Positions 6,598-42,434 of a DNA stretch of 64,000 bases are shown here, one piece after another. Origin of the DNA: an uncultured bacterium (GTDB lineage: Bacteria > Verrucomicrobiota > Verrucomicrobiia > Limisphaerales > JACDHS01). Numbering within the stretch: position 1 is the stretch's first letter; each line of letters opens with the position of its first letter. Both the position numbers and the translations under genes were made by a program. The stretch covers positions 40,053 to 104,052 of the forward strand of contig CBHWET010000001.1 in assembly GCA_966112985.1 (NCBI GenBank), written 5' to 3'. The notes beneath the pieces were generated by a model, which saw nothing but the letters and a program-made list of their open reading frames with translations, was not told the origin of the DNA and ran no database searches.

Positions 6598-6599
6598 GT

Positions 6600-11559: not shown

Positions 11560-12105
11560 TTAGCTTGATTTTTCAAACAGCTTTTTGCCAATACCCTTCG
11601 GGCTTTCATGATTTGTAAACGGAGAAAAGCGGTAATAGCCCTCCTTGTCGTGGAGGCTCACCCACAGACCTGCCGGGAAATCGGCCTGGCCCACGATCAC
11701 CATCACAAATGATTTGAGTTGATGACGGGACTTGCTGAAGCAGTCCTGCATACTCTTCAAATCGGTGCCAGACGGCGAAGGGATTGGTTCAGGATGAGTA
11801 TGCCAGTCGCCAACGAAATGAAGGCGCTCCTTAAACAGCTTTTGGATCTCGGCGTTTTGCCGTTGCTGATTCGGGATGAACCAAAACCGTCCGCGTTTGT
11901 CTTCGTTTGCCGGCCCTGTCGCAACTCGAATACAAACGCGGCCAGGTGAAAACTCCGCAAAGAGTTGTCCGCCCACCTCAGGAGCGTTTACTGAAGCCTG
12001 TCTGTGCTTGTTAAAATGCAGGAGCACGTCAGAACAGACGAAAAGTTCCTGCCCGGCTTTCTCACCGCGAAAAGACAGCGATTCAAATTTGGCATTTCGG
12101 CTCAT
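11560..12105 (-). CDS. cap3: CBASS Cap3, JAB/JAMM (MPN+) isopeptidase
   Basis: 181 aa with a JAMM motif HTHPEPIPSPSGTD (HxHx7Sx2D) and an upstream Glu (PEVGGQLFAE). The start ATG shares one base with the cap2 stop (TGATG at 12107..12103). Confidence 0.85.
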   Translation of the reverse strand: MSRNAKFESLSFRGEKAGQELFVCSDVLLHFNKHRQASVNAPEVGGQLFAEFSPGRVCIRVATGPANEDKRGRFWFIPNQQRQNAEIQKLFKERLHFVGDWHTHPEPIPSPSGTDLKSMQDCFSKSRHQLKSFVMVIVGQADFPAGLWVSLHDKEGYYRFSPFTNHESPKGIGKKLFEKSS

Positions 12106-13967: not shown

Positions 13968-14922
13968 TCACCAACGAATTCTTCGAACTGTTTTCTTCAA
14001 TAAGGTCATCGAAATAATCGGTATCGAAGACCTTCCGCCATGCTTTGAGTGCCTGCTTTTTAGAGTCGGTGGTTTCAAGGACTTTCAATTCGTTAATTGC
14101 CCATGCCAACCGCTCGCGCAATTCCTTCATGCAAGCATCTTCAGTTGTCTTAGTGAGCGTCTCCGATAGAACTGGATGTTGAACAACTAACGAGCCATCG
14201 AGTCGTGATTTGATCGCCTTGATAAGGCTGTAGAAGGCTCGGTCGTCGCGCTCGTCAAATGTCCAGTAGCGCTCATCCGTAAGCACTGTGAGAATGAAAC
14301 CGCTCGGCATGTTCCAACTCGCCCGACTGATGCAGAATTTTTTGAGGAGCCGAATCATGCGCCGCATTTGGTGTTGGCCTTCCTTTTCCTGCGAGGAATG
14401 TTTGGCTTTCAATTGCTTTTGAAACCATTCTGTCACTGCTTCCGGATTGGACTTTTTCCAATCGCCGCTCGCAATTTCGTAAAGCGTACTTTTGGAGTCC
14501 GGGTTCTCCATCCGATATACAGGAACATCGACGTGATGGCCCTCGTTGTAATAGACACGGACGCAATTCTCTCGAACCTCCGGCTTCGTTTTGAAGGCTT
14601 CGTCGTAAAGCGCATCGCAGACCATTTTGCGAGCATCGAGCGCCGTCTTGTCGGCTCCTTGCTTTCCTTTGAGCGATTCCTTTGTGAAGACAACACCGTC
14701 ATCAATGTCGTAATCGTTTTTGGGGTGCTGAACGGTTGTGCGCATGGCGTATGAGCCTTGAAGAACGAAACGGTTGGGCGCCGGCTCCTCCGCGTCCTTC
14801 AACCCTTCCTTTAGCCGCCGTTCATTTGCCTCGGCTTGGTCTGAAAGTTTTTTCCGAATATCCTCCGATAGCTTGACGCGATCGTCGTGGAATTTTCTGA
14901 CTTCTTTACTGCAATCAATCAT
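13909..14922 (-). CDS. CBASS cGAS/DncV-like nucleotidyltransferase (CD-NTase)
   Basis: 337 aa. It has the GS motif and the first two catalytic acids (LQGSYAMRTTVQHPKNDYDIDDGVVF) and a third Asp strand (GHHVDVPVY). The ATG overlaps the capV stop as ATGA. The C-terminus ends ...KAGGGRFG-stop. Confidence 0.85.
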   Translation of the reverse strand: MIDCSKEVRKFHDDRVKLSEDIRKKLSDQAEANERRLKEGLKDAEEPAPNRFVLQGSYAMRTTVQHPKNDYDIDDGVVFTKESLKGKQGADKTALDARKMVCDALYDEAFKTKPEVRENCVRVYYNEGHHVDVPVYRMENPDSKSTLYEIASGDWKKSNPEAVTEWFQKQLKAKHSSQEKEGQHQMRRMIRLLKKFCISRASWNMPSGFILTVLTDERYWTFDERDDRAFYSLIKAIKSRLDGSLVVQHPVLSETLTKTTEDACMKELRERLAWAINELKVLETTDSKKQALKAWRKVFDTDYFDDLIEENSSKNSLVIANEEPTAPVQKAGGGRFG

Positions 14923-16043
14923 AACGATTTCCTTTCTGGTGTTTGTAATGGGGGCATATTCTGAAAAACTCCTGAGATGATACGTCCGTCCTCATTGCTA
15001 TCCTTTTCCTGGCAGAGCCGGTACGCCTCAATAGCATCGTCAGCACCGAAGCTTGAAAAAGCGAGAAGCGCATCTTCACTGGCGAGATCCATCTGAAGAA
15101 ACTTTAAGTGTGCCTCGGAACGACGGGCTTCAGGAAAACGGATGATTTTGATCTCACGACCATTTTGGGATAAACATTTCGCGAGAAAATGCGCGGCGAA
15201 GTCTGCGCTCGACGCCTGCGCGTTCATCGCAAGTGTTAATGCCTTCGCTCCAGCCTTCCATTTCAATAGCCCCCGTCGAAGATCTTTTGATTTTAATACG
15301 TTTCCTTCCGGGGCGGAACAGGTTCCTACCGAAAGAATATGAATAGGTTGATCTTTCTCCGCTACCAACATAGCCTCTATCAATCCAATTAGAACCGGAT
15401 TATTTGCCGCAAGCCCGCCGTCCGCATACGTTTCGATCACTAAAGGATCTTGAGGTGAAGCAATGCCAGCCAGGGGCAAAAAGATCGGCGCTGCGCTTGT
15501 AGCGAGACAAATATCGACAAGCTTGTACTGATTATCCAAATCCTTTTTCGGCAGATGAGGCGTCTTGAAAACACGAAACTTTTCGTCAAGGAGTTTGACC
15601 GAGGTCAGGCACAATCCAATTTTTCGACGGTCATAGAGGCGAGCCACCGTTTCATTTCCGAAAAGTTCGTCCAACTTTTCTTTCAACGGAGCCGCTGAGT
15701 TAGCTGGTTTGAAGAAACTACCCAAGCTCCACCACAAAAACGGGAGCAGCCTTTGCGGTTGGGGCCGCATAAAAATCTTTGGCCCGACCTTTCGGTACAT
15801 CTCGATGATGTCATTTATTGAAAGGCCATAAGCCAAGGCGGTCGCTAGAATTCCACCGGTGCTGGTTCCGACAATGAGGTCAAAACCTTTTCCGATGTCT
15901 AATTCGACAGTTTTGTTCTGCTCGACAAATCGACCAGCCAATCGTTGCAGAAGAGTCGCCGTATAAAGGCCACGCATTCCACCACCATCGAGCGACAGCA
16001 CTACAAAAGGTTTTCGGTTCTTGGTCTGACAATCTTTCTCCAT
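14919..16043 (-). CDS. capV: CBASS effector CapV, patatin-like phospholipase
   Basis: 374 aa with an oxyanion hole motif (LSLDGGGMRGLY), a nucleophile elbow (GTSTGG) and a catalytic Asp motif (ADGGLAANNP). It is the first gene of the four-gene operon. Confidence 0.9.
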   Translation of the reverse strand: MEKDCQTKNRKPFVVLSLDGGGMRGLYTATLLQRLAGRFVEQNKTVELDIGKGFDLIVGTSTGGILATALAYGLSINDIIEMYRKVGPKIFMRPQPQRLLPFLWWSLGSFFKPANSAAPLKEKLDELFGNETVARLYDRRKIGLCLTSVKLLDEKFRVFKTPHLPKKDLDNQYKLVDICLATSAAPIFLPLAGIASPQDPLVIETYADGGLAANNPVLIGLIEAMLVAEKDQPIHILSVGTCSAPEGNVLKSKDLRRGLLKWKAGAKALTLAMNAQASSADFAAHFLAKCLSQNGREIKIIRFPEARRSEAHLKFLQMDLASEDALLAFSSFGADDAIEAYRLCQEKDSNEDGRIISGVFQNMPPLQTPERKSL

Positions 16044-16155: not shown

Positions 16156-17076
16156 ATGTTCGAAAATCTATTCGACCGGCAGGGGCTATCCCTTGATCGA
16201 TTACGGACGTTTTGCGAAATCGCTCAATCCCGTGGAATTACCCGTGCCGCCAAGGGGAACACAGTCCGCCAATCCCAATTCAGTCGACAACTGAAAGAGT
16301 TGGAAAACTATTTCGGTGCGGAATTGTTCGTTAGAAAACGCAATACATTTCGACTGACACCTGCCGGCGAAAAATTGCTCCGTGTCGCAAACGAGTTCTT
16401 TGCGTCCCTCGTCACGGCAAACAACGAAATACAAAACCTTCCTCAAACAATTTCCTTTGGAGCAGGAGAAAGTATTTTCAACTGGCTGCTTTTCCCGCGT
16501 TTCTCGAACCTGCATCAATTGTTCCCAAATTTTTGCTTTCAGTTCCGGAACCTGCAATCCAATGAAATCATTCGCGAGATACAAGAATCTGAACTCGATT
16601 TTGGGATAGTTCGGGAAGACGCCTGTCCGCGGACGCTCGAAAAAAGGAAGCTTGGCTCAATCAGTTATTGCCTGTTCATGCCCAAGCAGATTAAGGCACC
16701 CAGAGGATCGCTCCCACAAAATACGGTTCTAAAAAATCTCCCGCTCGCGACACTCGAAGGGGATGGCCAGTTTAAGACCATTCTATTTGAGTCGGCAGAG
16801 AAGCACGCCATATCGCTCAACATCAAAGTCGTGTGCAGTTCATTCCCACTAATGACGGAAATTCTGAAGCACGGACATGTAGCCGCAATCCTGCCAAGCA
16901 TCGCTGAAAGCGAACTCCCAAAAAGTCAATTCGAACGGATAGACCTTCCCATGTTGAAACAAATGCAGCGACAATACGTTTTATGCTACCGAGCAAGAAC
17001 ACTTGAGCGCCGAGATTGCTTGCAGCGTGCCTTGGCAGCACTCGTTAAACATCTCCAAATTGGAGGAACTTGTTGA
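16156..17076 (+). CDS. LysR-type transcriptional regulator (LTTR)
   Basis: 306 aa. The N-terminal wHTH is typical of LTTRs (LDRLRTFCEIAQSRGITRAAKGNTVRQSQFSRQLKELENYFGAELFVRK), followed by a periplasmic-binding-protein-like effector domain of the right length. It is divergent from capV, with a 112-bp intergenic region. Confidence 0.85.
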   Translation: MFENLFDRQGLSLDRLRTFCEIAQSRGITRAAKGNTVRQSQFSRQLKELENYFGAELFVRKRNTFRLTPAGEKLLRVANEFFASLVTANNEIQNLPQTISFGAGESIFNWLLFPRFSNLHQLFPNFCFQFRNLQSNEIIREIQESELDFGIVREDACPRTLEKRKLGSISYCLFMPKQIKAPRGSLPQNTVLKNLPLATLEGDGQFKTILFESAEKHAISLNIKVVCSSFPLMTEILKHGHVAAILPSIAESELPKSQFERIDLPMLKQMQRQYVLCYRARTLERRDCLQRALAALVKHLQIGGTC

Positions 17077-17152: not shown

Positions 17153-20100
17153 TTACGCCTCGACAATGCGATAAAGCCGACACTCCTTGTCCGTGGTCAT
17201 CAGCCGGTAGATTCCTCCAGAAAGTTCGACAACTACACGCAATGTTTTGACAGCCGCTGGTCCGGTTTTACTACGTCGCACCGTAGGAGCGTTCTCGTCA
17301 ACTATTGCAAATTCAATTCGACGATCATGGAAATCACGCGCTCTTACCCGGGAAAGCTCAAACACGTCAATTTCGGCAGTTGGGTTCACCGAACTCAGAA
17401 ATGTCCGCGTCAAAGCCGCGATTTGCTTTCGCAGTTCCTGCTCAGCCAATTTGCTGGACTGAGCGTACTGCACTTTGATGACTTTCGGCGGACTGGCCCA
17501 AAGCTTCTCCATAACGCCAAAAAGCCCTTTCAAAGATGCCAAAGCGTCTTGGTCGGCCGTAATGTACGGATCACTGATTATTATCCGCTCGATTTTGGTT
17601 CCTTTTAAGAAACTGAAATCCTGATCGAGTTTTCTAGAGGATCCAGGAGTGTACTCCCGTCGATAAAACGCGGCAGGCGGCTGGATTTTTTGGGCAGGAA
17701 TCAATTCGCTTGTCGCTTTGATGGCCTCCAAGACGCTAGTCCCCGGTGCTTTGCCGAGAAAAACATGCTCGCCCAATAGCTTGTGTAGAACTGCAGCCGG
17801 AGCACCAGCATCGTAAAGACATACACAACCGTCTTTGCTCTCCGCGATCATTCTCAAGCGCGATGGCAAACTCTGTTGGTTTTTAATCCGGTGGAAGACG
17901 AGGCGGCCTTCCTTGCAGTAAGGCGAAAACCATTCCGTTGCAAACGCTGCTTTGGGCAAGTGAGAATCGCCAAAATCGGGAAAGACCGAGCAATAAATTG
18001 ACACCGTCTTTTTATCAACGAGCCATTTGTGAATTCTTTCCCATTCTGGAAAAAAATGTTCCAATCCAGAGGTGTTGTCATCGCTCCACAGCGGACCGAC
18101 AAATTCTCCAAGGCTTGGAGCAAGAATGTGAATCGCACGGGCTTTGTCGAGCGCTGCGAACGCGCCGGACTTCGAGATTCCCTCCAAACTCAAGCCAGCG
18201 TTCCAATCTTTGACGGCCAGGTTCGAGAGACGGTTAACCCATTCCAGAGCAGCAATTCTCTTGAACTGGTCCCAGTAAGTTTGGTTCGAGTAGGTGCAAA
18301 CACAGTGGCTGCACCCGTTGGAACAGCTCCTCGCACAGTCAAGAATCTTGCCGGCTCGCTTAAGAAGATCTTGTGCTGTGTAGTTTTTGAAAAACATGCC
18401 TACATATCCGGCTCCCCCGGGGACAGTATCAAAAATAATGATCTCCGGTCCTTCACTCAGTCGCCAACGAAAGGTTGCTGAAAGCTGCCCTTCCTCGATC
18501 TCGATGGCCTCACTCAATGCGATGCGACATGCTTCGGTGACGGTTCTAGCAACAGCGGTGCGAAAGGCGCCATGCTCATTCGGGTTTAGATTGTCAGGCA
18601 CCTGAATCCTATGGTCGATTCTCACCTGCAAGACGTCGGTTCGAAACTGGTGTGCAAGGTCTTGAGCCTTGTGTTGGAACTGTCCGTTGCACTCGGTGCC
18701 CGTGTAAGGATCCCGGTGGGCTGACAATCGGAACGCGTTCGGGTCGCCAGTGATAACTTCGGTATATCGACAACTGCAACGTTTGAAGCCGTGTCCTCTA
18801 CCCTGATTGACGACGAGCATTGTCCCTTCCTTTGCACTCTGAATCGCCCAGCTAATACCTTGGAGTGGCGAGTCACAAAAATCTTCGTCCCGGGCAGAGG
18901 AAACCAATTGGGTTTCCATTGCTGCTGGCGGTCGAATGCGCGTTGCCCCAGGTTCTTTACCCTGGCTCTCGTGAACGGAGGTCACGAAGCTTCGTGGTTC
19001 GACAAACTCGCGGGGAACCCCGGGTATAGGCTGCTGACATTTGGGACAGGTTTGCGGAATTAAGTCAGGGGCCTCTCCAATCGCGACGTGACGACACATT
19101 CGGCAGACCTTGTAATACCTCTCTGGCATGAAATGTTTCGGATAAAAACCGATACCACGAGAAGTCCATACGCGTCCCTTCGCCACAATTTCGGCTCCTG
19201 GCGCGTACTCTACAATTCCCATTCTAGCGTCACGATCCAGTTCTAGGTCCTGTTCCCAAGGTGAACCAAAGCGCTGCTTCCGACTGGTCAGAATTTCTAA
19301 GCAGATGTTGTTAACTGGAAACGTGTACGTTGGAATAACACCAAAACGGCTTAAAAAATTTATCAACTGTTGCATCGACCATTTGTAAGCCATTTTCAAA
19401 AACCGATCGGCACGTCTGTTCTGCTGCCGGTCGGTTTCGGTCCCACCCTTCAATTCGTCGAACTTTGAAAAATAAAAGCGATGTCGATCACCGAATTCCT
19501 TCGCGATGTCAGAAAGCTCAGCAAAAAAGTCCTGTTTCAGAACCGCTGGGTCGCACTGCAGTTCCTTCAAACAATCAGCGGAGAGGTTGCTTCTGACCGA
19601 CTTTTCGAGTGTTTCGGCCAGCTTCAAATGCTTATTTGCATCTGCTGATTGCAACCATTTGGTAAGGCGCGAGAGAAAGTTCAGTTGATCCTCTTCCGAA
19701 AAACGCACCCTGGACTGATCTTCTGCATCTGGATCGTCTTCAGGGCCGGTGATTCTGGACAGCCCGAATAGTTGTCCGATTTGAAGCGACGATTCGTCCG
19801 GCACAACATGCTGTAAGAAACCTGCCAGCAGAATGGAATACTGGTGCCTTCGAAACAAACGCTGATTGTTCAAATGCACGAATGGGGTCCGAGGGTCTTT
19901 GGAAAGGAACTGCTCGGCGGTTTCGTAAACGATTTGGTCGAATCGGCGGTTCCTGGCGTAGGTAACACTGACTGGCGCCGCTTGCGCCCGCCGTCCTGCT
20001 CGTCCCGCTCGCTGTTGGTAATTACCTATGTCGGGAGGAACATTGCGCAGCATCACTCCTTCAAGATCCCCGAGATCGATCCCCATCTCCATGGTTGTTG

Positions 20101-23100
20101 AACAACTCAACACGTTAATGCGACCCTCTTTGAATTCCTTCTCTGTTTTTTCCCTGAGGTTTGTCGAAAGAGCCGCGGTATGCTCTCTTGCCACAGCACT
20201 GGGCATCTGCCGCAGTTGGCAGTAGAGGTACGCGTAATGGTGCTTTGTGAGGTGCTCGTTCCATACGCCTTCGTTAAGGTTAATCAACCGACCATTGCAG
20301 CCGAACTGAGGGCAAATCTCCCCGAGATCAAGGGTTGTGACAAACGAGCAGTCCTTGCACTTTCGAATTGCAGTTGGAGCAGAAAGGCAAAACTGCATGC
20401 GTTTGTAATCCAGCACCATTCCGGGATGCTGTGTAGTCATTGGAACAAGTAGTTGAATTTCTGGATCGGTAAGCAGTTCCCAAAATCGAGTGAGGATCTG
20501 CTGCCATTGAGAAAGGCACAGTTTACGACCAATAAATTCACCCCATCGATTTCTATAAAACGATCCATTCGGTTTCAGTTTCGGGATCAGCCGAAATGGA
20601 ACATCCGTTAATGGCGCAAGTGAGAACGATCTCTCGGGCTGGGCGTACGCTCCCCAAATGAATTCGTCATCTCCAGTAATCCCCGGTGGCATTCGAATCG
20701 CACGATTATTGCGAATTCCATCCAATATCCATGTGAGAATCGACAGTGACCGCTGTTCGTGTTTTCCAAACAAACTTTTGATCCCCGATTCTGTGTCAAT
20801 TTCTTCGAGCGATGGCCCGTAGCTGACTGTAATTATACCTAAGTCGTCTAACGAATTCCGTGCTCCGCCCGGGAGGCAAAACTCTGCCAACACCTTTCCT
20901 CGAATAACCGTTTCCAAGTTGTCCTTTGGACTCTCACCATCACGATCAAGAACGCCGCGCTTAATTTCGGGTAACTTCAACAATTCGCTGACCAGCATCT
21001 CCACATTCAGCTTAACGCCTTGATGCTGCTTCATTATGTTCACGATTGCCCAACGAAGCAGGATTTCCTCGTGCCTGCGTTGAAAACTCGGCGCGAAAAA
21101 CGCCGCATCTTGACGATTGTCGCTGAACACGAGCAAGCTTCGACCATTGCCCGGTAATTTCCACGCGTCCTTTTTGTTTGTTGGGAGATGCGAATAAAGA
21201 ACCTCACTCACGACTTCAGACATTGCCTGGTCGCCCGGGTGAAATGGCGTGACGATCTCGTAGCGGTCCCGCCCACCACAAGACGGGCACGAGGTCATTG
21301 AGCCGTCGTTCCAGTCTTCATCAGCATCAGGCTCCCGCAGTGAGGCTCGAGTAGTTTCCAACCATTCATTAACGCGATCCTCCGGCAGCAGCCGATCTTT
21401 GATCTTCCCGTTGATCACATGTACAAAGCATTTTCCGACGGCTTCATCCTCCTCGGCTTCATCCTCGGCGCTCACCAAATTATTTTTTGGCTTCAACCAG
21501 AAGATTGACCTTTGCCACGCGCCGTGCCCGGGCCGGCGGCCTTTTAATTGACCCTGAGCGGCGGACTCGTATGCCTCGAAGTAAAGCTCGCCGCATTTTC
21601 TGCAAGTCAACAGCCGATACCGCTCACGATGTGCCTCCTCATCGTAAAAAAGGCGAGCGAATCGGAAATCTGAAAAACAGTCTTCGCAGTCGGAAGGGTG
21701 CTCCAAGCGAATGGTCGCTTCGTCGATCCCGGTGACAAAAAAATGATAGCGTGCTGGCAAGAGCGGGTAGCCTTGAGGTGTTTCTTTTGCAAATGCCCCC
21801 AGAGCAATGAGTCCTTTCAATGCGCCAGCGGCAGTATCCAGGGCAGCGGCTGGGAATAGCTCCGCAGCGAGTTTGCGAAACGCCAGGAACTTGTGGGTAG
21901 ACAGCAATTCAGAAGCTTTCTGAAGAGTCGGCTCCTTTGACAGAAGGGAGCACAAGCCTGCGGCTAGTGACCCGGCAGAAGGGTCCACGCTGCATCGAAC
22001 ATCAGCGGTTGTTACCTCTTGGTTCCATAATGAGACATGGTCTGGGCCGTCGTTATCCACGTCGGAGAGCACGTTCAAAATACCATGGAGTTTGATCCAG
22101 TCGCCGGGCTCCAAAGGCGAAATTTTGTTGCGTTGGGCGAGAAGACGGTGGGCCTTTCGCCTCGCTGTAATCGGCGGTTGAAATTCCGCGCCGAACAAAT
22201 CAGCAGCAAATTTCTTAATTCCGTCGGAGCTACGAGAATCCTGGGACAGGCTCGCACTGGTTCCAATGCATATCACTTTGCTGTCCGTGCAGTGCCGGTT
22301 CTTAAGCTTTCGAAGGAGCAAAGCAACTTCAGTTGCTTGGGCACCTCGATAGGAATGAATTTCGTCTAGAACCAGAAAATTCAGATTGCTTCCAGCGAAC
22401 AGGCGTGAGTTCTTTGGAAGCAAAAGCAAATGCTCCAACATTGCATAGTTGGTCACGAGAATATGGGGCGGCGTTTCTAGCATCTCTGCTCTACTTAGAA
22501 GCCAGTTATCCGGAATCGACCTTTGAAAAAGCGTCTGGAAATACGGATCTTGCAAATATGAGGCGACAAATTCATCCCGTGTCCACTTCGCATTGGTCTG
22601 GCCGGTGTAGCGTCCTACGGTAATTCCAAATTCCTGTAGACGGACAGCCAGCATCGGAAGTAGGCGATGGTACAGTTGGTCATTTGCCAGTGCGTTAAGC
22701 GGATATACTAACAACGCTCGAATGCCGGGTTTTCCCTTTACCTTTTGCTTCAACAACGAATCGATGATTGGGTAGAGAAAGCATTCAGTTTTTCCGGATC
22801 CTGTTCCAGTGGCAACAATCACATTTTGACCGTTGCTCGCAACCGCTTCAACAGCGTGTTGTTGGTGCAAGTGCATAGGACGTCCGTATTCCTCTTGAGA
22901 TAATTTGCTAAAACCTTCATGCAGGCTTCCGCTCTCAACGAGTTGTTTCAGTGATTTACCTTTTGGGAAATCCGGCAAAGCCTCCACGAAGGGGCCTTTT
23001 ACCAGCTTGTCTGGCTCCGAAAGCGTTTTCCCAGCGACTTGCCGCACTTTTGAAAATCGCTCGCTAATCGGAAGTGCTGTGAGCAGATACCGGAGAACGC

Positions 23101-23146
23101 GCTGTTTCAAGTCGTCGTGAAGCTGTAGTGGATCAATTTCCTTCAT
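17153..23146 (-). CDS. druE: Giant DEXH helicase with DUF1998 zinc module; DruE-like (Druantia)
   Basis: 1997 aa. It has motif I ([15 protein letters not shown]), motif II ([11 protein letters not shown]), the [10 protein letters not shown] block, motif VI ([11 protein letters not shown]), and a Cys cluster typical of DUF1998 ([19 protein letters not shown]). About 365 further residues follow. A protein of 1800-2100 aa that fuses a helicase with DUF1998 is the Druantia hallmark. The start overlaps the upstream gene by 14 nt. Confidence 0.75.
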
Positions 23147-27383: not shown

Positions 27384-28079
27384 ATGAAGCGTGGCTCAAT
27401 TTCGAAAAATTTTTGTACAATGAATTCAGAATCAAATCACCATAATGGTGGAGACAGCGGTATCAGCAATCAACCTCCGCGCAGCGCGATAGGCGATGTT
27501 CGATTGCAGCCGGCCGAACAAGCCGTATTGGAAAAGTGTGAGCAAACGATCGCTATGGGAGTTGGAACATTTGTGCTGGTTGGGAGCGCTCTCGCTCAAA
27601 TCAAAGACCAAAAATTGTATCGCCAGAAGTATCACACTTTTGCCGACTACTGCCGCGACCGATGGGGTTTCGGGAAGTCGCATGCCCACCGGCTGATAGA
27701 TGCAGCTGAAGTCGTTAAAAAGCTGTGCCCAATTGGGGACACGGCGTCTGCACTCCAGAATGAGGCGCAAGCCCGGGCGCTGATCAAAGTGCCCGAACAA
27801 AAACGAGCGCAAGTTCTCTCGCTCGCCAAACAACGTGCTGGCTCCTCCTCGATCACCGCCAAACTCATAGAGTCGTGTGGAATTGAGGTCCTGGGCCAGA
27901 ACCAAACGCGGAAGTCTACGCGGTCACCCGCGGTCAACCGGGGGGTGTTTTTGAAATGGGTGGGGTATCTGCGTGAAGTTCTCGCCAAGGAGGGAACGGA
28001 AAGGGTGCTCTGCGTCCTAACGGAAGCTGAGCAGCGCCAAATGCCGGTCCTTCCGCGTAACCGAAAGGAGGTAAAATGA
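27384..28079 (+). CDS. Hypothetical DNA-binding protein with a ParB/KorB-like HTH segment
   Basis: 231 aa. The segment YHTFADYCRDRWGFGKSHAHRLIDAAEVV resembles the HTH and neighbouring helix seen in many phage/plasmid ParB-type proteins. The stop overlaps the start of the next gene (ATGA at 28076-28079). An alternative start is ATG 27420. Confidence 0.35.
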   Translation: MKRGSISKNFCTMNSESNHHNGGDSGISNQPPRSAIGDVRLQPAEQAVLEKCEQTIAMGVGTFVLVGSALAQIKDQKLYRQKYHTFADYCRDRWGFGKSHAHRLIDAAEVVKKLCPIGDTASALQNEAQARALIKVPEQKRAQVLSLAKQRAGSSSITAKLIESCGIEVLGQNQTRKSTRSPAVNRGVFLKWVGYLREVLAKEGTERVLCVLTEAEQRQMPVLPRNRKEVK

Positions 28080-29297: not shown

Positions 29298-29510
29298 TCA
29301 AAACTCTTCGGGAAAAACATCACAAAGCCGCATTTTTAGTTTGTTCAAAATGATCTGAAGTTTGCTCAATGTAAGATGATGTTCGCCCCGTTTGAGCCGA
29401 AGGTAGGTAGTATGCGATATGCCGATCGACCGTGAAAATTCACGATACGGCCGGTTAGCTCGCGTTTTCTCCAGGAAGTCACGTAGTTGCTTGTCAAAAT
29501 TTCGCCGCAC
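29298..29510 (-). CDS. XRE/Cro-CI family HTH transcriptional regulator
   Basis: 70 aa with a GTG start. The HTH is YREFSRSIGISHTTYLRLKRGEHHLTLSKLQIILNKL. Confidence 0.75.
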   Translation of the reverse strand: MRRNFDKQLRDFLEKTRANRPYREFSRSIGISHTTYLRLKRGEHHLTLSKLQIILNKLKMRLCDVFPEEF

Positions 29511-35049: not shown

Positions 35050-35289
35050 CTACTGGCAGTTTGATGTTCCCACTCGGCTGCGGATGAACTGTTCCAACTC
35101 GGACCGAGAAACAAAAACGGCGCGGCCTTTCTTGTAGAAGGCCAGCCCTTGTTGGTGATATTTGCGAATGGTATTCGGAGCGAGGTCCACGATCTCCTTG
35201 CTCTTGGAAAGTCGAAAGAGGTCAAACGAGCCTGCCGCAATTTGAAGATTAGAGCATGAATTTGAATTCATGCTCGAAGGGTAAAACAC
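35050..35289 (-). CDS. Excisionase/AlpA-type helix-turn-helix protein
   Basis: 79 aa. LSKSKEIVDLAPNTIRKYHQQGLAFYKKGRAVFVSRSELEQFI fits the excisionase-family HTH (target-site HTH followed by the 'wing' and xSELEQFI). It is two genes downstream of the integrase. Confidence 0.6.
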   Translation of the reverse strand: MFYPSSMNSNSCSNLQIAAGSFDLFRLSKSKEIVDLAPNTIRKYHQQGLAFYKKGRAVFVSRSELEQFIRSRVGTSNCQ

Positions 35290-35298
35290 TTAAAAAAC

Positions 35299-36279
35299 TC
35301 AAATGGGGGCAAAGGTCCGTTGCCTGATGAACTGGCCTTCAATCCAAAGTTCCTTGTCGGCCCCGATTGGTGCGACCCATTTGGCTAAACTTTGCATCGG
35401 AACTTCGCATCCTGCCTGCCGGCCTATACGGGCGGATCCGGCGATTGAAAGTTTCAAGTTTAAGGCTTTGCATCGATCTTCCGTTGGCCTCGCTTTTTTC
35501 CCCAATGGAATTTTCGTACTAAACTCAAAAAGGTCACAGGCAACCAGCCAGACGTCATGATAGCTCCACCCGTACAGGGTCACGATCGGCCAAGTCTCGA
35601 TCATCCACGTTTCAAATTGTGGCATCGTCCACTGCACCTTTCCTTTCGATCGTTTTGCGTCGGCAAACGCTTTGGCGGCACAAGGGGTGCAAATCCGGGC
35701 TAGTTCGCTGCTGAAGATCTCTGGCGGCAGGCCATCGCAGTGGCGATCCAAAAAACCCAACAATGCTGCTTCCCTGTTATTCGTTTCGGTGCGAAGAGCA
35801 TAGGACTGTTTTCTTAAGTATAAGTTCAGAGATTGTTCAGCCGCCGTTCTCCACTCCTGAAAGCGTTTCAACCAGAAACCCGGCTCCATTTCCTGCACCA
35901 GATTCGTTGACTCTGGTTTTAGCAACGCCGCTTCAAGCTTCCATCGCTCATTCGCAACAATGTGCGCACCAAGGTCACCGAGCCACAGGGGAATTGGCGA
36001 ATACGTTTGTTTCGCCCATTGAACAACGGCGGAACACCACGCCGGCACAATAAAGCATCTGAAGTAAAAATCTCGATCTACCCCCAGAGGAAACTGAATC
36101 TTTAGCTTTTCAGCTGCGGCATGTGCGGCTCGTTCGAGTGGGGTTGCCAAGCGCAGAGGCGGAGCGAGTAGCACCTCTGACGACTCAAGCTTTTTCGCAA
36201 TCCTTTGTCCTTGCGAAAGGATGTTCTGGATTTCCTTTTTGGTCGTCAATTTTTTCAAGGAATGTGGGGGCACGGTCAT
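35299..36279 (-). CDS. Hypothetical protein (326 aa)
   Basis: A long ORF overlapping the integrase stop by 4 nt. No motif was recognised. Confidence 0.55.
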   Translation of the reverse strand: MTVPPHSLKKLTTKKEIQNILSQGQRIAKKLESSEVLLAPPLRLATPLERAAHAAAEKLKIQFPLGVDRDFYFRCFIVPAWCSAVVQWAKQTYSPIPLWLGDLGAHIVANERWKLEAALLKPESTNLVQEMEPGFWLKRFQEWRTAAEQSLNLYLRKQSYALRTETNNREAALLGFLDRHCDGLPPEIFSSELARICTPCAAKAFADAKRSKGKVQWTMPQFETWMIETWPIVTLYGWSYHDVWLVACDLFEFSTKIPLGKKARPTEDRCKALNLKLSIAGSARIGRQAGCEVPMQSLAKWVAPIGADKELWIEGQFIRQRTFAPI

Positions 36280-37448
36280 CGACCCGCTTCATTGGACTGC
36301 TCGAATGCGGGTAGTTGGTTCACTGCCTTGCTCAATACGTCCATTGGCAAGTGCGTATACAGGTTATTGATCTCGTCGCTGCTGTGACCGACGAGTGCTT
36401 TCGCGACCTCACTGTTGCTGCCGGTTGCCTTTAGGAATGTGACATTTGTATGTCGCAGCGAGTGAAATGACAGACCGTTATAATCGTGTTTGCCGCTGCG
36501 CCCGTTTTTCTTGCCTTCATGTGTGCGAGGTGAAGCTAGTCCTGCGGGAACCAGGATCTGTTCGTAAAACTGATTGCTAAAGACTTTCGCCTTTAAGCGT
36601 TCGTAGCGTTCAGCCTGCTCGGGCCAGACATAATCGGATGCTTTCGTCGTCTTGGGGAGTCCGCTGAAAACTTCTTCCAACACCTTTCGAAAACCCTGAG
36701 CGATCGGAATATGAACAGTTTTGCCGGTCTTGCGGGTTAAAATATTGATTTCATTCCTCTCAAAATCCACGGCTCCCTTCGGGATGGTAATCAGATCTCC
36801 CATTCGCAAGCCGGTATAAAAGCCACCTGAAATCATGTATCTCCAAAAAAGATCCGGGGCCTTATCGTAAATCCGCTTCAGTTCCGAAAGTGTAAATGGC
36901 CGGCGATTGAGTCCCTCGTCTCTGCTCTGCTTGAAGACCTTAATTGGTGCGACAGGATTGGTCGTGAGTTTGGAGTTTTTGACTGCCCAAATGAAAAAGA
37001 CGGCGAGAATCGTTCGATAAAGATTCGCGGTACTGGCTGTAACGGTCGCTCGCTTTCGTATCAGAAACGATCGGAGAACGTCAGTACTGATGTCTCGCAG
37101 AAGTGGTGCTTTGTCAGAAGCGTTTACGAACACGGAAAGCTCGTCCGCTACCTTTTGGTACTTTGCAAGCGTTGCCTCGGCTGTGCTTCCCTCGCATTCC
37201 TTGAGCCATTCGGCCACACAAGTCTTTAGTGTGATCTTCGGGGTTGGGGACGAGCCGGTCAGAGATTCAATCAATTGTTCGGTCAATTTGCCGCTCGACC
37301 TGGCGTTGTGCAAAAAGTTGAACTCTTGCAATTTTTCCTCGGCCTTCTTCCGATCCGTTTCGCCCGTGCTTTGTAAGAATTGTTTGCCATTGACTCTCCA
37401 TCCGATCCACCATTTCCCGCTATCAGGTCTCTTGTATAACCATGCCAT
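36276..37448 (-). CDS. Tyrosine recombinase / phage-type integrase
   Basis: The C-terminal catalytic region is LSFHSLRHTNVTFLKATG...LVGHSSDEINNLYTH (R...HxxR...Y). The N-terminus MAWLYKRPDSGKWWIGWRVNGKQF is typical of integrase SAM-like/arm-binding starts. I trimmed the start to ATG 37448. Confidence 0.9.
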   Translation of the reverse strand: MAWLYKRPDSGKWWIGWRVNGKQFLQSTGETDRKKAEEKLQEFNFLHNARSSGKLTEQLIESLTGSSPTPKITLKTCVAEWLKECEGSTAEATLAKYQKVADELSVFVNASDKAPLLRDISTDVLRSFLIRKRATVTASTANLYRTILAVFFIWAVKNSKLTTNPVAPIKVFKQSRDEGLNRRPFTLSELKRIYDKAPDLFWRYMISGGFYTGLRMGDLITIPKGAVDFERNEINILTRKTGKTVHIPIAQGFRKVLEEVFSGLPKTTKASDYVWPEQAERYERLKAKVFSNQFYEQILVPAGLASPRTHEGKKNGRSGKHDYNGLSFHSLRHTNVTFLKATGSNSEVAKALVGHSSDEINNLYTHLPMDVLSKAVNQLPAFEQSNEAGR

Positions 37449-37554
37449 CTTGCAGCAACATAGACCGTATGTAAAACGTATGCAAATCACTGATATTCAT
37501 TGTTGCTCATACCCAATAAAATCAATGGTTTTGAACGTTGATGAAGATGGTTGC

Positions 37555-37588
37555 CGAAGCCCGGGTTCGATTCCCGGTAGGGTCGCCA
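37555..37588 (+). other. Truncated tRNA 3' end (T-arm + 3' acceptor strand + discriminator + CCA); probable att core of the integrative element
   Basis: CCGGG-TTCGATT-CCCGG (37561-37577) is a canonical T-stem/loop. It is followed by TAGGGTC (acceptor 3' strand), G and CCA (37586-37588). The complementary 5' acceptor strand GACCCTA and a D-arm are not present in the ~75 nt upstream, so this is not an intact tRNA gene. Confidence 0.65.
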
Positions 37589-37598
37589 ATTTTTTGTA

Positions 37599-38335
37599 CT
37601 AATCCACCTTTCGGAGTCATCGGAAACGTCTTTTGACAGTCAAAATTCGGTTGCGGACGTCCGCGAGCATCTTTTGAGCATCAGAATTCTCTTGCGGGCG
37701 TTCGCGACCGTTTTTTGAGCCTCAAAATTTTGTTTCGGAGGTCCGCGACGGTTTTTTGGGCGTCAGAATTCCGTTGCGGAGCTCACCGACCGTTTTCTGA
37801 GCGTCAAAATTGCGTCTCGGAACTCCGCGACGGTTTTGTGACGGTCAGAATTCGCTTATGAACGTCCGCGACGGCTTTTCGCGCGTCAAAATTTCCTCTC
37901 GATCGTCCCCGACGATTTTTGGGCGATCCGTTTTCGGTTGCGTACGTTCCTGACGGGTTTTTTGCTGTCAGATTTGGTTGTGCACGTCAGCGAAGATTTT
38001 TTGATGATAAAAATTCTGTTGCGGACGTCCACAAAGGTTATTTAACGGTCAAAATTTCCTTTCAAGCGACTTGGGGGCGGTTTGCGCGCCAATTTTTGCT
38101 CGTGCACGTTCGCAACTCTTTTTTGAGTGTCGAAATTGTCTTGCAGACGTGCGCGGGTGTTTTTTGACCGTAAAAATTTGCTCGTTTACGTCGCCGGCTG
38201 TCTTTGAGCGACGAAATTTGGCCGGGGACGTCCTCGGGTATTTTGTAATCGCCAAAATTCCGTTGTGAACGTTCGCGACGATCTTTTCAGCGTCAAATTT
38301 TGCTCGCAGACGTTCGCGAGCATCTACTACGAGTT
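37599..38335 (+). repeat. About 17 tandem copies of a degenerate 41-bp unit (approximate consensus TCAAAATTnnGTTGCGGACGTCCGCGACGnTTTTTTGAGCG)
   Basis: The unit-start motif TCA[A/G]AATT (or a degenerate form) occurs at 37640, 37681, 37722, 37763, 37804, 37845, 37886, 37927, 37968, 38008, 38049, ~38089, 38130, 38171, ~38211, 38252 and 38293. Spacing is 41 bp throughout, with one 40. The best-conserved core is nACGTn inside an imperfect palindrome, which is perfect (GCGGACGTCCGC) at 37653-37664. Confidence 0.85.
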
Positions 38336-38432: not shown

Positions 38433-39905
38433 CTAAGCCAGAAGCTTGGTTATCAATTCCCCGTGGACGTCCGTTAGCCTGAAGTCGCGGCCCTGGAACC
38501 GGAATGTCAGGTTCGTATGCTCCAGACCGAGCAAGTGAAGAATCGTCGCGTGAATGTCATGCACGTGGCATCGGTCAGCTACGGGGCTGAATCCGAATTC
38601 GTCCGTTTCGCCCAGCACCTGACCGCTTTTCACTCCGCCGCCAGCAAACCACATCGTGAAAGTATCGATGTGATGATTACGGCCCGTGCTCTCCCGGTTT
38701 TCGCCCATTGGCGTTCGGCCAAATTCACCGCCCCAGACCACGAGCGTTTCGTCGAGCAAACCTCTTTGTTTGAGATCTTTTACAAGCGCGGCTTGTGCCT
38801 GGTCGACTTCCTTGCAGATTTTCTCAAAAGATTTTTCCAAATCTTCGCCCGGACCTCCGTGGCTGTCCCAATTGGTGTGATACAGCTGCACAAACCGGAC
38901 TCCACGCTCGATCAAGCGACGGGACAGCAGACAATTCCGGGCAAAGGAAGCCTCACCGGGTTTGACACCGTACAAGTCAAGGGTCGCCTGGCTTTCGTCG
39001 GAAAGATCAATCAGATCAGGCGCACTCGTCTGCATGCGATACGCCATTTCGTATGCGGAAATACGTGTTCGGATCTCATCATCGCCGGTATCCACCAGTC
39101 GTTTCAGGTTCAGATCGCGAATCGCATCGATCGTCTTGCGCTGACGAGTTGCGGTGACTCCTTGCGGGCTACTTAAATTGAGAATCGGTTCGCCCTGCCC
39201 TCGTAACGGCACACCTTGATAGCTCGTCGGAAGAAAGCCGCTGGTCCAATTCATCGCGCCACCGCGCGGACCGCGTGGCCCGGATTGCAGAACGACAAAA
39301 CCGGGAAGATTCTGGCATTCGCTGCCGATCCCATAGGTAACCCACGCTCCCATGCTCGGACGTCCGAACTGCGTTGAACCAGTGTTCATGAACAACTTGG
39401 CGGGCGCATGGTTAAATACGTCAGTCGCGCAGGTTTTAAGAATTGTAATGTCGTCAACGATTCCGGCTGTGTGCGGAAAGAGTTCAGAAACGAAAGCTCC
39501 GCTTTGACCGTGCTGGCTGAACTTGCGGCGCGTGCCAAGAAGTTTCGGAGGATCCTTTGCAAACGTATCCATGAACGCGAAACGTTTGCCCTCGATGTAC
39601 GACTTCGGAATCGCCTGTCCGTTGTATTTAACAAGGTCAGGCTTGTAATCGAAGAGTTCCAGTTGACTCGGCCCGCCGGCCATGAACAGGTAAATGATGT
39701 TCTTCGCTTTGCCACCAAAGTGCGGAAGTTTTGGTTCCAGCGGGTTAACGAGCTTCGCCGGCCCGGCACCGAACAATTTGTTTTCGCTCATCAACGCGCC
39801 GAGGGCGATTCCACCAAGGCCAATCGCACATTTGCTGAAGAAATGACGGCGGGTGATCTCTTCGAGATTTCCTTGATGCTGCGGATTAACAAAAAAATGG
39901 GACAT
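38433..39905 (-). CDS. DUF1501 domain protein (sulfatase-fold, Tat signal)
   Basis: 490 aa with a twin-arginine-type N-terminus (ITRRHFFSKCAIGLGG) and the conserved block LYHTNWDSHGG. It is paired with an upstream PSD1-type gene, as is usual in Planctomycetes/Verrucomicrobia. Confidence 0.85.
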   Translation of the reverse strand: MSHFFVNPQHQGNLEEITRRHFFSKCAIGLGGIALGALMSENKLFGAGPAKLVNPLEPKLPHFGGKAKNIIYLFMAGGPSQLELFDYKPDLVKYNGQAIPKSYIEGKRFAFMDTFAKDPPKLLGTRRKFSQHGQSGAFVSELFPHTAGIVDDITILKTCATDVFNHAPAKLFMNTGSTQFGRPSMGAWVTYGIGSECQNLPGFVVLQSGPRGPRGGAMNWTSGFLPTSYQGVPLRGQGEPILNLSSPQGVTATRQRKTIDAIRDLNLKRLVDTGDDEIRTRISAYEMAYRMQTSAPDLIDLSDESQATLDLYGVKPGEASFARNCLLSRRLIERGVRFVQLYHTNWDSHGGPGEDLEKSFEKICKEVDQAQAALVKDLKQRGLLDETLVVWGGEFGRTPMGENRESTGRNHHIDTFTMWFAGGGVKSGQVLGETDEFGFSPVADRCHVHDIHATILHLLGLEHTNLTFRFQGRDFRLTDVHGELITKLLA

Positions 39906-39908
39906 AGG

Positions 39909-42434
39909 TCACTCTCTGGAAATCGTTTCGTCGAGGTTCAACAGGACACGAGCGACGGTGATCCACGCAGCCAGGTTTTTGGCGTCGACATCTTTCGGCG
40001 CCTCTTTCCCAACGAACTGCGCTGCCTCCGCGTCCGCAGCAGTGAAACTCTTCAGCTCATCATCGAGTAACTGCTTAAGACGTTCGCGTTCGTCCTTCTT
40101 TGGCTCGCGCGCAAGGCAAAGCTGAAATGCATAATCCAGCCGTTTCGTTTCGTTTCTTGGCTCATCCTTCAACACACGCAACGCCAGTCCCTTCGCCATT
40201 TCGACGAACGCTTGTTCATTCAACAGCGTCAGCGATTGCAACGGTGTGTTCGAACGAATTCGTCGCGTGCACACACTTGTCGAATCCGGAGCATCAAACA
40301 CAACCAATGAAGGCGGCGGCGTCGCGCGGTAGAAGAACGTATACATTCCGCGGCGGTATCGACCGGAACCGCTGCTCACGTTCCAATCCCGCTTTACCTG
40401 CCCGAGAGTCATGACGCCATCGGGAATTGGCGGGTAAACGCTCGGGCCGCCGATATCGCCCGATAGCAAGCCGGCAGCAGCGAGTTCAACGTCACGAACA
40501 ACCTCGGCTTCCAGACGGAATCGGTTTTGCCGCGCCAGCAATTTATTGTACGGATCACGTTCTTTGAGGTCAGGACGCATGTTTGACGATTGCCGGTAAG
40601 TCGCAGAGGTCACAATCAACCGGTGCATCTTTTTCAGACTCCACTGTTGATTCATGAACTCGCGCGCAAGCCAGTCGAGGAGTTCGGGATGGCTTGGAGC
40701 AGTCCCCTGGGTACCGAAATCATTGTCCGTCTCCACAATGCCTTTGCCGAAATAACGCATCCAAATGCGATTGATCGTGACGCGTGCGGTGAGTGGATTT
40801 TTTGGATCAACCAGCCATTTCGCGAGATCAAGACGGTTTGCCGAGTTATCGATGCCCCGCACGGAACCCCCCATTTGGTCACTGACAATCTTGGGAAATC
40901 CGGGAAACACGCGCGCGGCATGGCGGGTGAAGTCGCCTTTTGTGAAAACAAATGACTCACGTGGTTCTTTCCGTTCTTCCAAAACCATTGTGCTTGTGAC
41001 CTGCGGCTTTTGTTTTTCCAACTTCAAGTACTTCGCCTTCTGTTTTTTGTAGGCTTCGTCGCCTTTCTTAACCTCATCGACCAACAAGAGCTTTTCTTTC
41101 AGGGTGCGCTTGTCCGGAGTCGTTTCCAAAACGCGTTTTATCGCGGATGACAATTTGGCAATTTCGGCGGTTGATAGCGCTTTTTGCCACTCGGTCACGG
41201 CGTCCGCCGTTTCGCTGATGTAACGTGTGAGGGCCGACTCGAGTTGATCGAGTTCTTTCTTGTGTCGCTCGATCTTTTCTTGCTCAGGCCCGGTCGCCAG
41301 CTGCAGGTCTGGCTCGTCCTGGTTGTTGAGAAAAGCAAACAGCTGATAATATTCCTTCTGCATTAACGGATCGAACTTGTGGTCGTGGCATTGGCAACAA
41401 CCGACTGTCAGGCCAAGCCAGGTTGTTCCAGTGGTGTTGACACGATCGAACACCGACTCAATGCGAAACTGTTCTTTATCGATGCCACCTTCCTGGTTGA
41501 TCATCGTATTCCGATAAAAGCCCGTCGCGATTTTCTGATCCGCTGTCGCATTGGGGAGCAGGTCGCCGGCAACTTGCTCGATCGTGAACTGATCGAAAGG
41601 CATATCGGCGTTGAACGCGTTGATCACCCAATCGCGGTATTTCCAAATTTGCCGGGGCGCGTCGACGCTATACCCGTTCGAATCGGCATAATGCGCTGCG
41701 TCCAGCCAATGACGCGCCCAGCGTTCGCCGTAATGAGGATTGTTCAACAAGCGATCGACCACTTTCTCGTATGCGTCCGCACTTGTATCTTTTAGGAACA
41801 GATGCACCTCTTCAACTGACGGCGGCAATCCAATGAGGTCCAGGTACACGCGCCGGATTAGAGTAACTTTGTCCGCCCCCGCCGATGGTTTCATATTCTG
41901 CTTTTCCAACTTCGACACAACAAAACTGTCGATTGGATTTCGCACCCATTTTTTATTTCTGACTTTGGGCACTTCGACGACTGCTGGCGGTGGGACAAAA
42001 CTCCAATGTAAAATGGCATCGGGCTTTTCGTTGGCCGGCGCTTTCGCGCCTTCATCCACCCAGCGCTTCAACAACGCGATCTTCTCCTCGTCGAGTGGTG
42101 ATTTTTTGTAGGGCATGCGAGGGAGATCTTTCGCAGTGCCTTGAACCGCTTTGATTAACAAGCTCTCTTCGCCTTTCCCGGCAACGACAGCGGGTCCCGA
42201 TTGCCCCCCTGTGAAAAGTGCTGCCGCGGTGTCAGCACGTAAGCCGTGCTTCTGCTGAGTCGTACTGTGACATTGATAACAAGCCGTCGAGAGGATTGGC
42301 TTGATCTCTTTCATGTAGTCAACGGGTTCGGCTGCAAGACGTGCAAGCGAGGTCAAAAGCACGGCATGTGAAGCAAACAAGAACTTATAGGAACACCAGT
42401 TTCGTATTCGTTTCATCAATGGCGGAGGCAACAA
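39909..42434 (-). CDS. PSD1-type protein: planctomycete cytochrome-c-like domain + DUF1549 + DUF1553
   Basis: 841 aa with CYQCHS near the N-terminus, RRVYLDLIGLPPS (DUF1549) and CCQCHDHKFDP (DUF1553 region). Confidence 0.85.
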   Translation of the reverse strand: MLPPPLMKRIRNWCSYKFLFASHAVLLTSLARLAAEPVDYMKEIKPILSTACYQCHSTTQQKHGLRADTAAALFTGGQSGPAVVAGKGEESLLIKAVQGTAKDLPRMPYKKSPLDEEKIALLKRWVDEGAKAPANEKPDAILHWSFVPPPAVVEVPKVRNKKWVRNPIDSFVVSKLEKQNMKPSAGADKVTLIRRVYLDLIGLPPSVEEVHLFLKDTSADAYEKVVDRLLNNPHYGERWARHWLDAAHYADSNGYSVDAPRQIWKYRDWVINAFNADMPFDQFTIEQVAGDLLPNATADQKIATGFYRNTMINQEGGIDKEQFRIESVFDRVNTTGTTWLGLTVGCCQCHDHKFDPLMQKEYYQLFAFLNNQDEPDLQLATGPEQEKIERHKKELDQLESALTRYISETADAVTEWQKALSTAEIAKLSSAIKRVLETTPDKRTLKEKLLLVDEVKKGDEAYKKQKAKYLKLEKQKPQVTSTMVLEERKEPRESFVFTKGDFTRHAARVFPGFPKIVSDQMGGSVRGIDNSANRLDLAKWLVDPKNPLTARVTINRIWMRYFGKGIVETDNDFGTQGTAPSHPELLDWLAREFMNQQWSLKKMHRLIVTSATYRQSSNMRPDLKERDPYNKLLARQNRFRLEAEVVRDVELAAAGLLSGDIGGPSVYPPIPDGVMTLGQVKRDWNVSSGSGRYRRGMYTFFYRATPPPSLVVFDAPDSTSVCTRRIRSNTPLQSLTLLNEQAFVEMAKGLALRVLKDEPRNETKRLDYAFQLCLAREPKKDERERLKQLLDDELKSFTAADAEAAQFVGKEAPKDVDAKNLAAWITVARVLLNLDETISRE

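Follow-up and report, generated by a model that had tools for sequence, protein, structure and literature searches.

An orphan array of 41-bp palindromic, terminator-like units at a tRNA/defence-island junction in an uncultured verrucomicrobial genome

The 64,000-nucleotide stretch analysed here (the window) derives from an uncultured bacterium of the order Limisphaerales within the Verrucomicrobiota (assembly GCA_966112985.1, contig CBHWET010000001.1) and contains a tandem array of 41-bp units. Each unit is an imperfect palindrome around ACGT that takes up almost its full length. The array occupies the space between the 3' fragment of a tRNA gene, which marks the right end of an integrase-borne defence island, and a convergent DUF1501 gene, whose 3' end faces it. 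An earlier note on this DNA had described about 17 strictly phased, non-coding copies at the island boundary and had proposed either a centromere of the F-plasmid type or a train of terminator- or small-RNA-like modules. The junction comprises the following features, with coordinates given for the window.

36276..37490, minus strand: tyrosine integrase of the island, recognised by Pfam and PHROGs scans
37558..37590, plus strand: tRNA 3' fragment with T-arm, 3' strand of the acceptor stem and CCA; attachment (att) core and right end of the island
37620..38334, plus strand: tandem array, with a partial leading unit (approximately 37620-37639) and 17 head-to-tail units
37640, 37681, 37722, 37763, 37804, 37845, 37886, 37927 and 37968, plus strand: starts of units 1 to 9
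38008, 38049, 38089, 38130, 38171, 38211, 38252 and 38293, plus strand: starts of units 10 to 17
37640..37926, plus strand: left block of the array, units 1 to 7, the best conserved
37927..38334, plus strand: right block of the array, units 8 to 17, more decayed
37650..37667, plus strand: best-preserved GC hairpin, in unit 1 (GTTGCGG-ACGT-CCGCGAG, alignment columns 11-28), followed by a T-run
38433..39905, minus strand: DUF1501 gene, whose stop codon and 3' end face the array; convergent partner of the former tRNA gene
39909-42434: PSCyt/DUF1553 gene, upstream of DUF1501 in the same operon

The tandem arrangement is real. Shifted by 41 bp, the array is identical to itself at a fraction of 0.585 of its positions, compared with a background of 0.246 ± 0.034, and a profile hidden Markov model (HMM) of the unit, run over the window, detects every one of the 17 units between 37640 and 38333, fifteen of them with E-values below 1e-3 and units 8 (u08, E=0.016) and 11 (u11, E=0.14) more weakly. 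Tandem Repeats Finder, which scores the better-preserved left part only, returns both periods named in the earlier note, 41 bp (37627-37893, 6.5 copies, 72% matches) and 82 bp (37627-37920, 73% matches). The claims of a 41-bp tandem array and of about 17 copies are thus borne out, with the partial leading unit in addition. The consensus of the units is TCAAAATTtgGTTGCGGACGTCCGCGACGGTTTTTTGAGCG, and the units are on average 61% identical to each other (range 39-78%). Their phasing is less strict than had been thought: fourteen of the 17 units are 41 bp long, but u09, u11 and u14 are 40 bp, which shifts the register by 3 bp and places the starts of the first and last units 653 instead of 656 bp apart (38293-37640). 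Likewise, the motif TCA(A/G)AATT, said to recur at every unit start, is found in its exact form in just eight units. Two smaller details hold: the perfect ACGT palindrome GCGGACGTCCGC is present at 37653 as its single occurrence in the window, and CGCGAGCATCT, which the first and the last unit have in common, occurs at 37662 and 38315 only.

The two halves of the array differ in their preservation and in their higher-order structure. In the left block, the identity at a lag of 41 bp is 0.70, and the alternation of A and G that had been noticed is real, running through units 1-7 at unit position 4. The 82-bp higher-order repeat deduced from it is faint and marginal, because the left half is hardly more identical to itself at a lag of 82 bp (0.72) than at 41 bp (0.70). 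The right block, which holds all three 40-bp units, has a lag-41 identity of 0.50 and retains the ACGT core in 9 of its 10 units. Here, a three-unit period of approximately 122 bp is discernible (identity 0.56 at lag 122 vs 0.50 at lag 41), a sign that this half grew by duplicating blocks of three units, in contrast to the two-unit order on the left. From the pairwise identities, the internal divergence is estimated by the Jukes-Cantor model at approximately 0.27 substitutions per site and unit lineage. The two- and three-unit block orders, the variant CGCGAGCATCT shared by the edge units and the gradient of decay are typical of satellite dynamics.

The array is non-coding, as had been claimed. 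Each of the six frames contains 5-8 stops, the longest open stretch among them spans 101 codons, and the six-frame translation, compared with 5.8 billion proteins in a search for spurious open reading frames (ORFs) on homologous arrays, gave no match. The exclusion of a CRISPR array also stands, since the units abut without spacers, a near-identical repeat core is missing and no cas domain was detected among the ORFs scanned.

Each unit starts with an A-tract (TCAAAATT), continues with a 7-bp G+C stem that encloses a 4-nt ACGT loop (GTTGCGG-ACGT-CCGCGAC), and ends, on the plus strand, with GG and a run of T4-7. The stem corresponds to alignment columns 11-17 paired with columns 22-28. Outside of it, columns 1-6 (TCAAAA) are complementary to columns 33-38 (TTTTGA), and the inverted repeat TTTTGA/TCAAAA that had been described across the unit junctions is real, with 80% of cells complementary; it represents the same complementarity of A-tract and T-tract, read between neighbouring units. 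Both the junction palindrome and the outer helix within the unit were considered as selected structures and rejected, because their covariation is no greater than in shuffles.

The G+C stem behaves differently. On the plus strand, 73% of its cells are paired, compared with 38-48% when the partner is slid, and six of the seven stem pairs show changes on both sides, which is reached by 2 of 500 shuffles. Compensatory change in the stem is modest, and the pairing shows signs of being maintained. The two strands are not equivalent: 87 of 119 stem cells (73%) are paired on the plus strand vs 72 of 119 (60%) on the minus strand, and the RNA fold of the whole array reaches -300.1 kcal/mol (z-score -13.6) on the plus strand vs -232.3 kcal/mol (z-score -4.35) on the minus strand. 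Terminator-like sites follow the same pattern, with six on the plus and one on the minus strand within the 0.72-kb array, while the rest of the window contains approximately 1.4 per kb, a frequency equal to that in shuffles.

Which side of the island boundary the array belongs to was clarified by another assembly (locus L227), which contains an integrase that is 66% identical to the one in the window and, approximately 100 bp upstream of the integrase start, an identical 31-nt tRNA fragment (L227 1673-1703). When the island and L227 are aligned, similarity is moderate from the integrase to the fragment, identity is found over the fragment and nothing is retained past the CCA end. As homology with L227 ends at CCA, the tRNA fragment, which occurs once in the window and is located between integrase and array, represents the att core, where the island ends on its right. 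In L227, the host flank next to this tRNA att site contains the end of an ordinary gene, and the array is missing. By this comparison, the array is host chromosomal DNA outside the element, which followed directly on the tRNA gene until the island arrived. The earlier placement at the island boundary was thus right as to the boundary, while the array lies on the host side of it and not within the element. ARAGORN detected no complete tRNA in the window, which means that either the island extends over more than 37.5 kb or the tRNA was lost. The longest ORF of the integrase starts with GTG at 37490; its homologues start with MAWLYK, corresponding to ATG 37448, and the database copy comprises 390 amino acids. 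The true start is therefore probably ATG 37448, which leaves the first 14 codons of the longest ORF untranslated.

Read as a transcript, the unit has the layout of an intrinsic (Rho-independent), roughly bidirectional terminator. Its G+C stem, 4-nt loop, upstream A-tract and T4-7 within 2 nt of the stem resemble such terminators, and the array lies just where one would expect a terminator to serve a tRNA gene and an operon convergent with it. A G+C stem-loop with a U-tract at a distance of 0-2 nt is present in the consensus, in six units on the plus strand and in one on the minus strand, while the others are degraded. Differences from ordinary terminators are the seventeen tandem copies instead of one or two, the degradation of most of them and the displacement of the minus-strand U-run by 5 nt. 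The earlier proposal, in which each unit is a plus-strand GC hairpin with a U-run behind it, therefore holds for the anatomy, in pairing, number of sites and fold, and termination itself would be a prediction from this anatomy. The explanation that we favour, tentatively and at somewhat less than even probability, is that the array is a locus-specific minisatellite that arose by in-register duplication of a terminator-like hairpin and is now in decay. On this view, any activity would not go beyond that of several partial terminators in series or of an insulator.

We infer the following course for its origin and for any termination activity. A single terminator-like hairpin would originally have been placed between two convergent units, the tRNA gene transcribed rightward and DUF1501 leftward. 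Slippage or unequal exchange may then have amplified it in register, in blocks of one to three units, and the copies would have diverged to approximately 61% identity. Today, the integrase-borne defence island of more than 37 kb stands between the tRNA gene and the array. No action in trans is envisaged; in cis and at the RNA level, the hairpin-plus-U-run modules could serve as partial terminators and as hairpins that protect 3' ends, mainly for rightward (plus-strand) transcripts, with the effect that DUF1501 would be insulated from transcription out of the tRNA/island side. Such partial terminator and stabiliser action should, by analogy, resemble that of the Escherichia coli REP325 cluster, a 3'-region element that works in cis by partial termination, attenuating read-through, and by stabilising the 3' end of the upstream mRNA, and that gives rise to ladders of truncated transcripts (bioRxiv 10.64898/2026.03.23.713779).

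Several observations weigh against this explanation. Strong hairpins of about -10 to -11 kcal/mol are kept by only about 5 of the 17 units (u01, u05, u15, u16 and u17), the remaining units having decayed, and the mean minimum free energy per unit is -5.5 kcal/mol, approximately two standard errors below the shuffle mean (-4.1 ± 2.4). The advantage of the plus strand results largely from one T13-G26 wobble, which was inherited by the units (founder effect), so that the strand asymmetry counts as about one event and not as seventeen. On the minus strand, the U-run begins 5 nt past the stem and the module is thus not truly bidirectional. Furthermore, conservation among the alignment columns is over-dispersed (variance 7.2 vs approximately 3.4-3.8 expected under an equal-rate model), and the best-conserved positions are not those of the stem, but AATT and the ACGT loop. 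In detail, the best-conserved columns are AATT, T12, CGT (columns 19-21), CGA (columns 25-27) and T33-T34; T7 and T8 are invariant, T12, T21, T33 and T34 are retained in at least 90% of the units, and the ACGT loop in 11 of 17. Finally, just three 1-bp length changes have occurred across approximately 700 bp. The conservation of AATT and ACGT, the over-dispersion and the scarcity of indels may point to a constraint on particular sequences or on spacing, which a plain terminator would not require.

Decay of this extent could also mean that the array does nothing. As a neutral relic, it would have the same origin by slippage, from a palindromic intergenic segment, and would be inactive non-coding DNA awaiting deletion. 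The divergence of the units to 61% identity, hairpins that are mostly no better than shuffles, a block-duplication structure typical of satellites, the single copy in the window and the absence of the array from all sampled relatives (L001, L100-L103 and L226 downstream of DUF1501, and the att site of L227) would all agree with this. However, bacteria delete useless DNA fast, yet 715 bp have persisted to approximately 0.27 substitutions per site and unit lineage. The column-specific, over-dispersed conservation, the compensatory stem changes at 2 of 500 shuffles and the restriction to three 1-bp length changes despite many T-runs are likewise not what a relic would lead one to expect. We consider a neutral relic possible, though on the doubtful side.

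The same conserved columns bear on a protein-binding array, which might be centromere- or iteron-like or a nucleoid or insulator site. Here, a dimeric protein would recognise the ACGT palindrome and/or AATT and, with a fixed spacing of 41 bp (approximately four helical turns), coat the array. The conservation of AATT, T12, CGT, CGA and T33-T34, the presence of ACGT in 11 of 17 units, the maintenance of unit length at 40-41 bp and the 18-bp dyad symmetry would suit such a protein, as would an unrelated 41/82-bp palindromic array beside the orthologous operon in L001 (6933-7178). For comparison, sopC of the F plasmid consists of 12 centromere repeats of 43 bp bound by SopB; both arrays are head-to-tail, have units of approximately 41-43 bp and contain an inverted repeat per unit. 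The sopC units are near-identical, their plasmid carries sopAB alongside, and the protein of the ParB type that binds them is known. In contrast, the array in the window is chromosomal and outside the mobile element, its units are 61% identical, no ParA/ParB is encoded nearby and no plasmid matches it.

For these reasons, and since no phage matches the array either, the proposal of a sopC-like centromere served by ParB-like proteins of the element is not supported. The Pfam and PHROGs scans of the element ORFs between 27384 and 37490 revealed no ParA/ParB or Rep, and the domains found were limited to integrase, HTH_17, HTH_3, DUF5131 and He_PIG. The three ORFs that had been taken for ParB-HTH-like genes carry no ParB signal:

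27384-28079: ORF of the element without a Pfam family
29298-29510, minus strand: HTH_3 ORF of the element, which reads on this strand only
35050-35289: HTH_17/excisionase-like ORF of the element

Thus, no cognate ParA/ParB was found among the element ORFs scanned and the array is not part of a mobile replicon, as would apply to a partition site. For an iteron origin, a Rep domain is missing from the neighbouring ORFs and similarity to plasmids is absent; DnaA boxes were not specifically searched for. Against protein binding in general speak the lack, among the ORFs scanned, of ParA/ParB, Rep or any other candidate partner beside the array or within the element, the position of the array on the host side, the lack of an array at the same att site elsewhere (L227) and the lack of similarity in plasmids and phages. 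In addition, the both-sided stem changes alter both half-sites, which argues for pairing and not for sequence read-out, and the units have diverged far more than those of working centromeres. A binding array is therefore unlikely.

The search for further copies characterised the array as an orphan. The unit HMM detected no second copy outside the array in the window and, with nhmmer, none in 225 fetched loci, which include those obtained by pattern scanning. Neither the 72,556 plasmids nor the 50,697 phages searched with blastn contained a match, integrase relatives were not found in viral contigs, and a literature search for 41-bp repeats gave vertebrate satellites only. The absence of a matching Rfam family was confirmed, with no match at the gathering score and just two chance-level microRNA matches at E<=1. 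Unit-like sequence to the left of the tRNA fragment (repeat family D3) was considered as a further copy and rejected, as it is at chance level; the same applies to an inverted repeat flanking the array (I2), of which approximately 0.7 would be expected by our own estimate. Beside DUF1501 orthologues (94-87% amino acid and 74-76% nucleotide identity), the array is absent at five loci, all of which have different downstream genes. The nearest relatives sampled have diverged further at synonymous sites, to saturation, than the units within the array have from each other, so that the absence of the array from these relatives is expected, whether it is functional or not.

Pattern scans reached further. 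AATT-N10-CGT in three copies at 40/41-bp spacing was searched for in 185,579 species genomes and gave 98 loci, and nearly all of those checked are 40/41-bp tandem arrays with unrelated units; the best ungapped identity of their units to the consensus is 23/41, compared with a shuffle maximum of 21. In Joint Genome Institute (JGI) metagenomes, three copies of TCANAATT retrieved at least 120 arrays, all unrelated, and a scan of viral contigs for the unit pattern yielded two matches, both unrelated. Because such scans select for a 40/41-bp period, unrelated arrays are expected and no enrichment can be claimed from them. Within this limit, multi-locus families of 40/41-bp arrays, often with palindromic units and A/T runs, were encountered in many unrelated genomes, including Prevotella, Mediterranea, Ca. 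Parabeggiatoa, Aquimarina and Magasanikbacteria (loci L044/L074, L006/L082, L007-L099 for Parabeggiatoa, L072/L086 and L024-L069 for Magasanikbacteria).

These multi-locus families are among the reasons to consider a dispersed element. The array could be a cluster of a hairpin that resembles repetitive extragenic palindromes (REPs) and the bacterial interspersed mosaic elements (BIMEs) built from them, or inverted-repeat transposable elements of miniature size (MITEs), mobilised by a transposase encoded elsewhere and represented by this sole cluster in the window. REP clusters and BIMEs of Enterobacteria, e.g., REP325 of E. coli in yjdMN, consist of imperfect G+C palindromes, arrayed in 3' or intergenic positions and often between convergent genes, and the palindromic hairpin in the window has a REP-like size and a 3' intergenic position between convergent genes. 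REP families also exist in the Planctomycetes-Verrucomicrobia-Chlamydiae (PVC) superphylum (PMC3733652), and the right edge of the array reads GTAG on the minus strand. However, REPs occur as hundreds of dispersed copies, alternate in BIMEs, carry GTAG/CGTC tags and are tied to REP-associated tyrosine transposases (RAYTs) (PMC3733652). The array in the window is found at a single locus in the sequence available and has a T-run in each unit; no singleton or second cluster occurs in the 64 kb or in approximately 100 kb of related genomes, and no RAYT/IS200-like gene was detected among the ORFs scanned. By the orientation and tag features of that study, all 17 units are head-to-tail on one strand, without the alternating orientation of BIMEs, and the consensus has no unpaired GTAG/CGTC tag outside the stem. 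The flanking inverted repeat I2 is at chance level. On the sequence available, a dispersed REP- or MITE-like element is improbable.

The strong plus-strand fold of the array (z-score -13.6) could alternatively reflect a train of small structured RNA modules, such as processed repeats of the toxI type or small RNAs, which would be transcribed and act in trans, e.g., together with the defence island. The size of type III antitoxin repeats resembles that of the approximately 41-nt unit, and a defence island adjoins. In type III toxin-antitoxin systems, tandem repeats of 34-46 nt lie directly upstream of a toxin of the ToxN/CptN/TenpN type, while the neighbours of the array are the tRNA fragment with the integrase and the 3' end of DUF1501, with no ToxN-like or other partner gene abutting. 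The array is also outside the island, its units are too diverged for a stoichiometric RNA partner, no promoter-like site points into it on the plus strand and Rfam contains no match. We regard an RNA train as very unlikely.

Among bacterial minisatellites, BrickBuilt of Porphyromonas gingivalis has units of 23 nt, a leader and a tail with inverted-repeat ends, and 19 copies per genome (PMC4596501). Like the array in the window, this minisatellite/MITE is intergenic, spacer-less and non-coding, and may affect transcription; the window array differs by its 41-bp units, the lack of credible terminal inverted repeats and its single copy in the sequence available. Downstream of tyrT in E. coli, tandem repeats consist of 178-bp units that contain the tRNA 3' end. 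They likewise are non-coding, arranged in tandem and placed immediately downstream of a tRNA gene, but the period in the window is 41 bp and the unit HMM scores only 1.8 bits against the tRNA fragment region, which is not significant (95th percentile of the null, 3.2). In sequence, the array matches nothing described and belongs to no named family; in kind, it is an intergenic bacterial minisatellite whose palindromic units resemble terminators, and its kin are REP/BIME clusters, tandem terminators and minisatellites of the BrickBuilt type. The earlier statement that no described family matches thus holds at the sequence level, while the kind of object, an intergenic palindromic minisatellite or 3' hairpin cluster, is known.

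A second array was observed in the closest relative, L001, whose DUF1501 is 94% identical at the amino acid level. It spans L001 6933-7178 with a period of 41 bp/82 bp and fully palindromic units (GGTACAAGGTCCGAAAATTTTCTATTTTCGGACCTTGTACC), and lies approximately 350 bp upstream of the orthologous PSCyt-DUF1501 operon, i.e. at the other edge of the two-gene block. It shows no sequence similarity to the unit in the window and is independent of it. No other large non-coding tandem array besides these two is present in 168 kb of unselected DNA of the lineage. The closest named homologues of DUF1501 are found in Verrucomicrobiales, Pedosphaera and Limisphaerales metagenome-assembled genomes, which assigns the organism to the Verrucomicrobiota. 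The PSCyt/DUF1553-DUF1501 pair is conserved as a two-gene block (74-76% nucleotide identity in L001, L100-L102 and L226) with flanking genes that differ in all relatives sampled, and either this block is frequently rearranged or it is part of a paralogous family.

On the opposite side of the junction, the integrase is accompanied by a dense defence island, which spans window positions 1335-26666 and includes a bacteriophage exclusion (BREX) set and a set resembling type II of the cyclic-oligonucleotide-based anti-phage signalling systems (CBASS):

1335-3089: GmrSD
3091-6666: PglX-like methylase of the BREX set
6600-10100: BrxC of the BREX set
10106-10768: BrxB of the BREX set
10687-11328: BrxA of the BREX set
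11560-12105: JAB protein of the CBASS type II-like set
12105-13967: E2/E1 protein of the CBASS type II-like set
13909-14922: CD-NTase of the CBASS type II-like set
14919-16043: patatin of the CBASS type II-like set
16156-17076: LysR
17153-23146: DEAD/MZB helicase of 1997 amino acids
23133-26666: protein of 1177 amino acids without a Pfam family

If the array is indeed an amplified and decaying terminator-like hairpin, as we tentatively favour, it would matter little beyond its locus. It would be an example of how such a hairpin can be amplified to a 0.7-kb minisatellite at a tRNA/island junction, and it could possibly be used as a variable-number tandem repeat marker for this uncultured lineage. 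A broader meaning would arise if selection maintained the array as a phase-constrained cis element, whether as an insulator or centromere-like site coated by protein or as a train of structured RNAs. The array would then exemplify a class of 41-bp dyad-symmetric arrays that has escaped notice in Pedosphaerales-like Verrucomicrobiota. Such a class is hinted at by the array in L001, the over-dispersed column conservation and the scarcity of indels, but we judge it improbable. To our knowledge, almost nothing has been described on the organisation of chromosomes and transcription in Verrucomicrobiota. If a binding protein or a processed RNA turned out to lie behind the AATT and ACGT columns and the 41-bp spacing, the array would provide an entry to this organisation.

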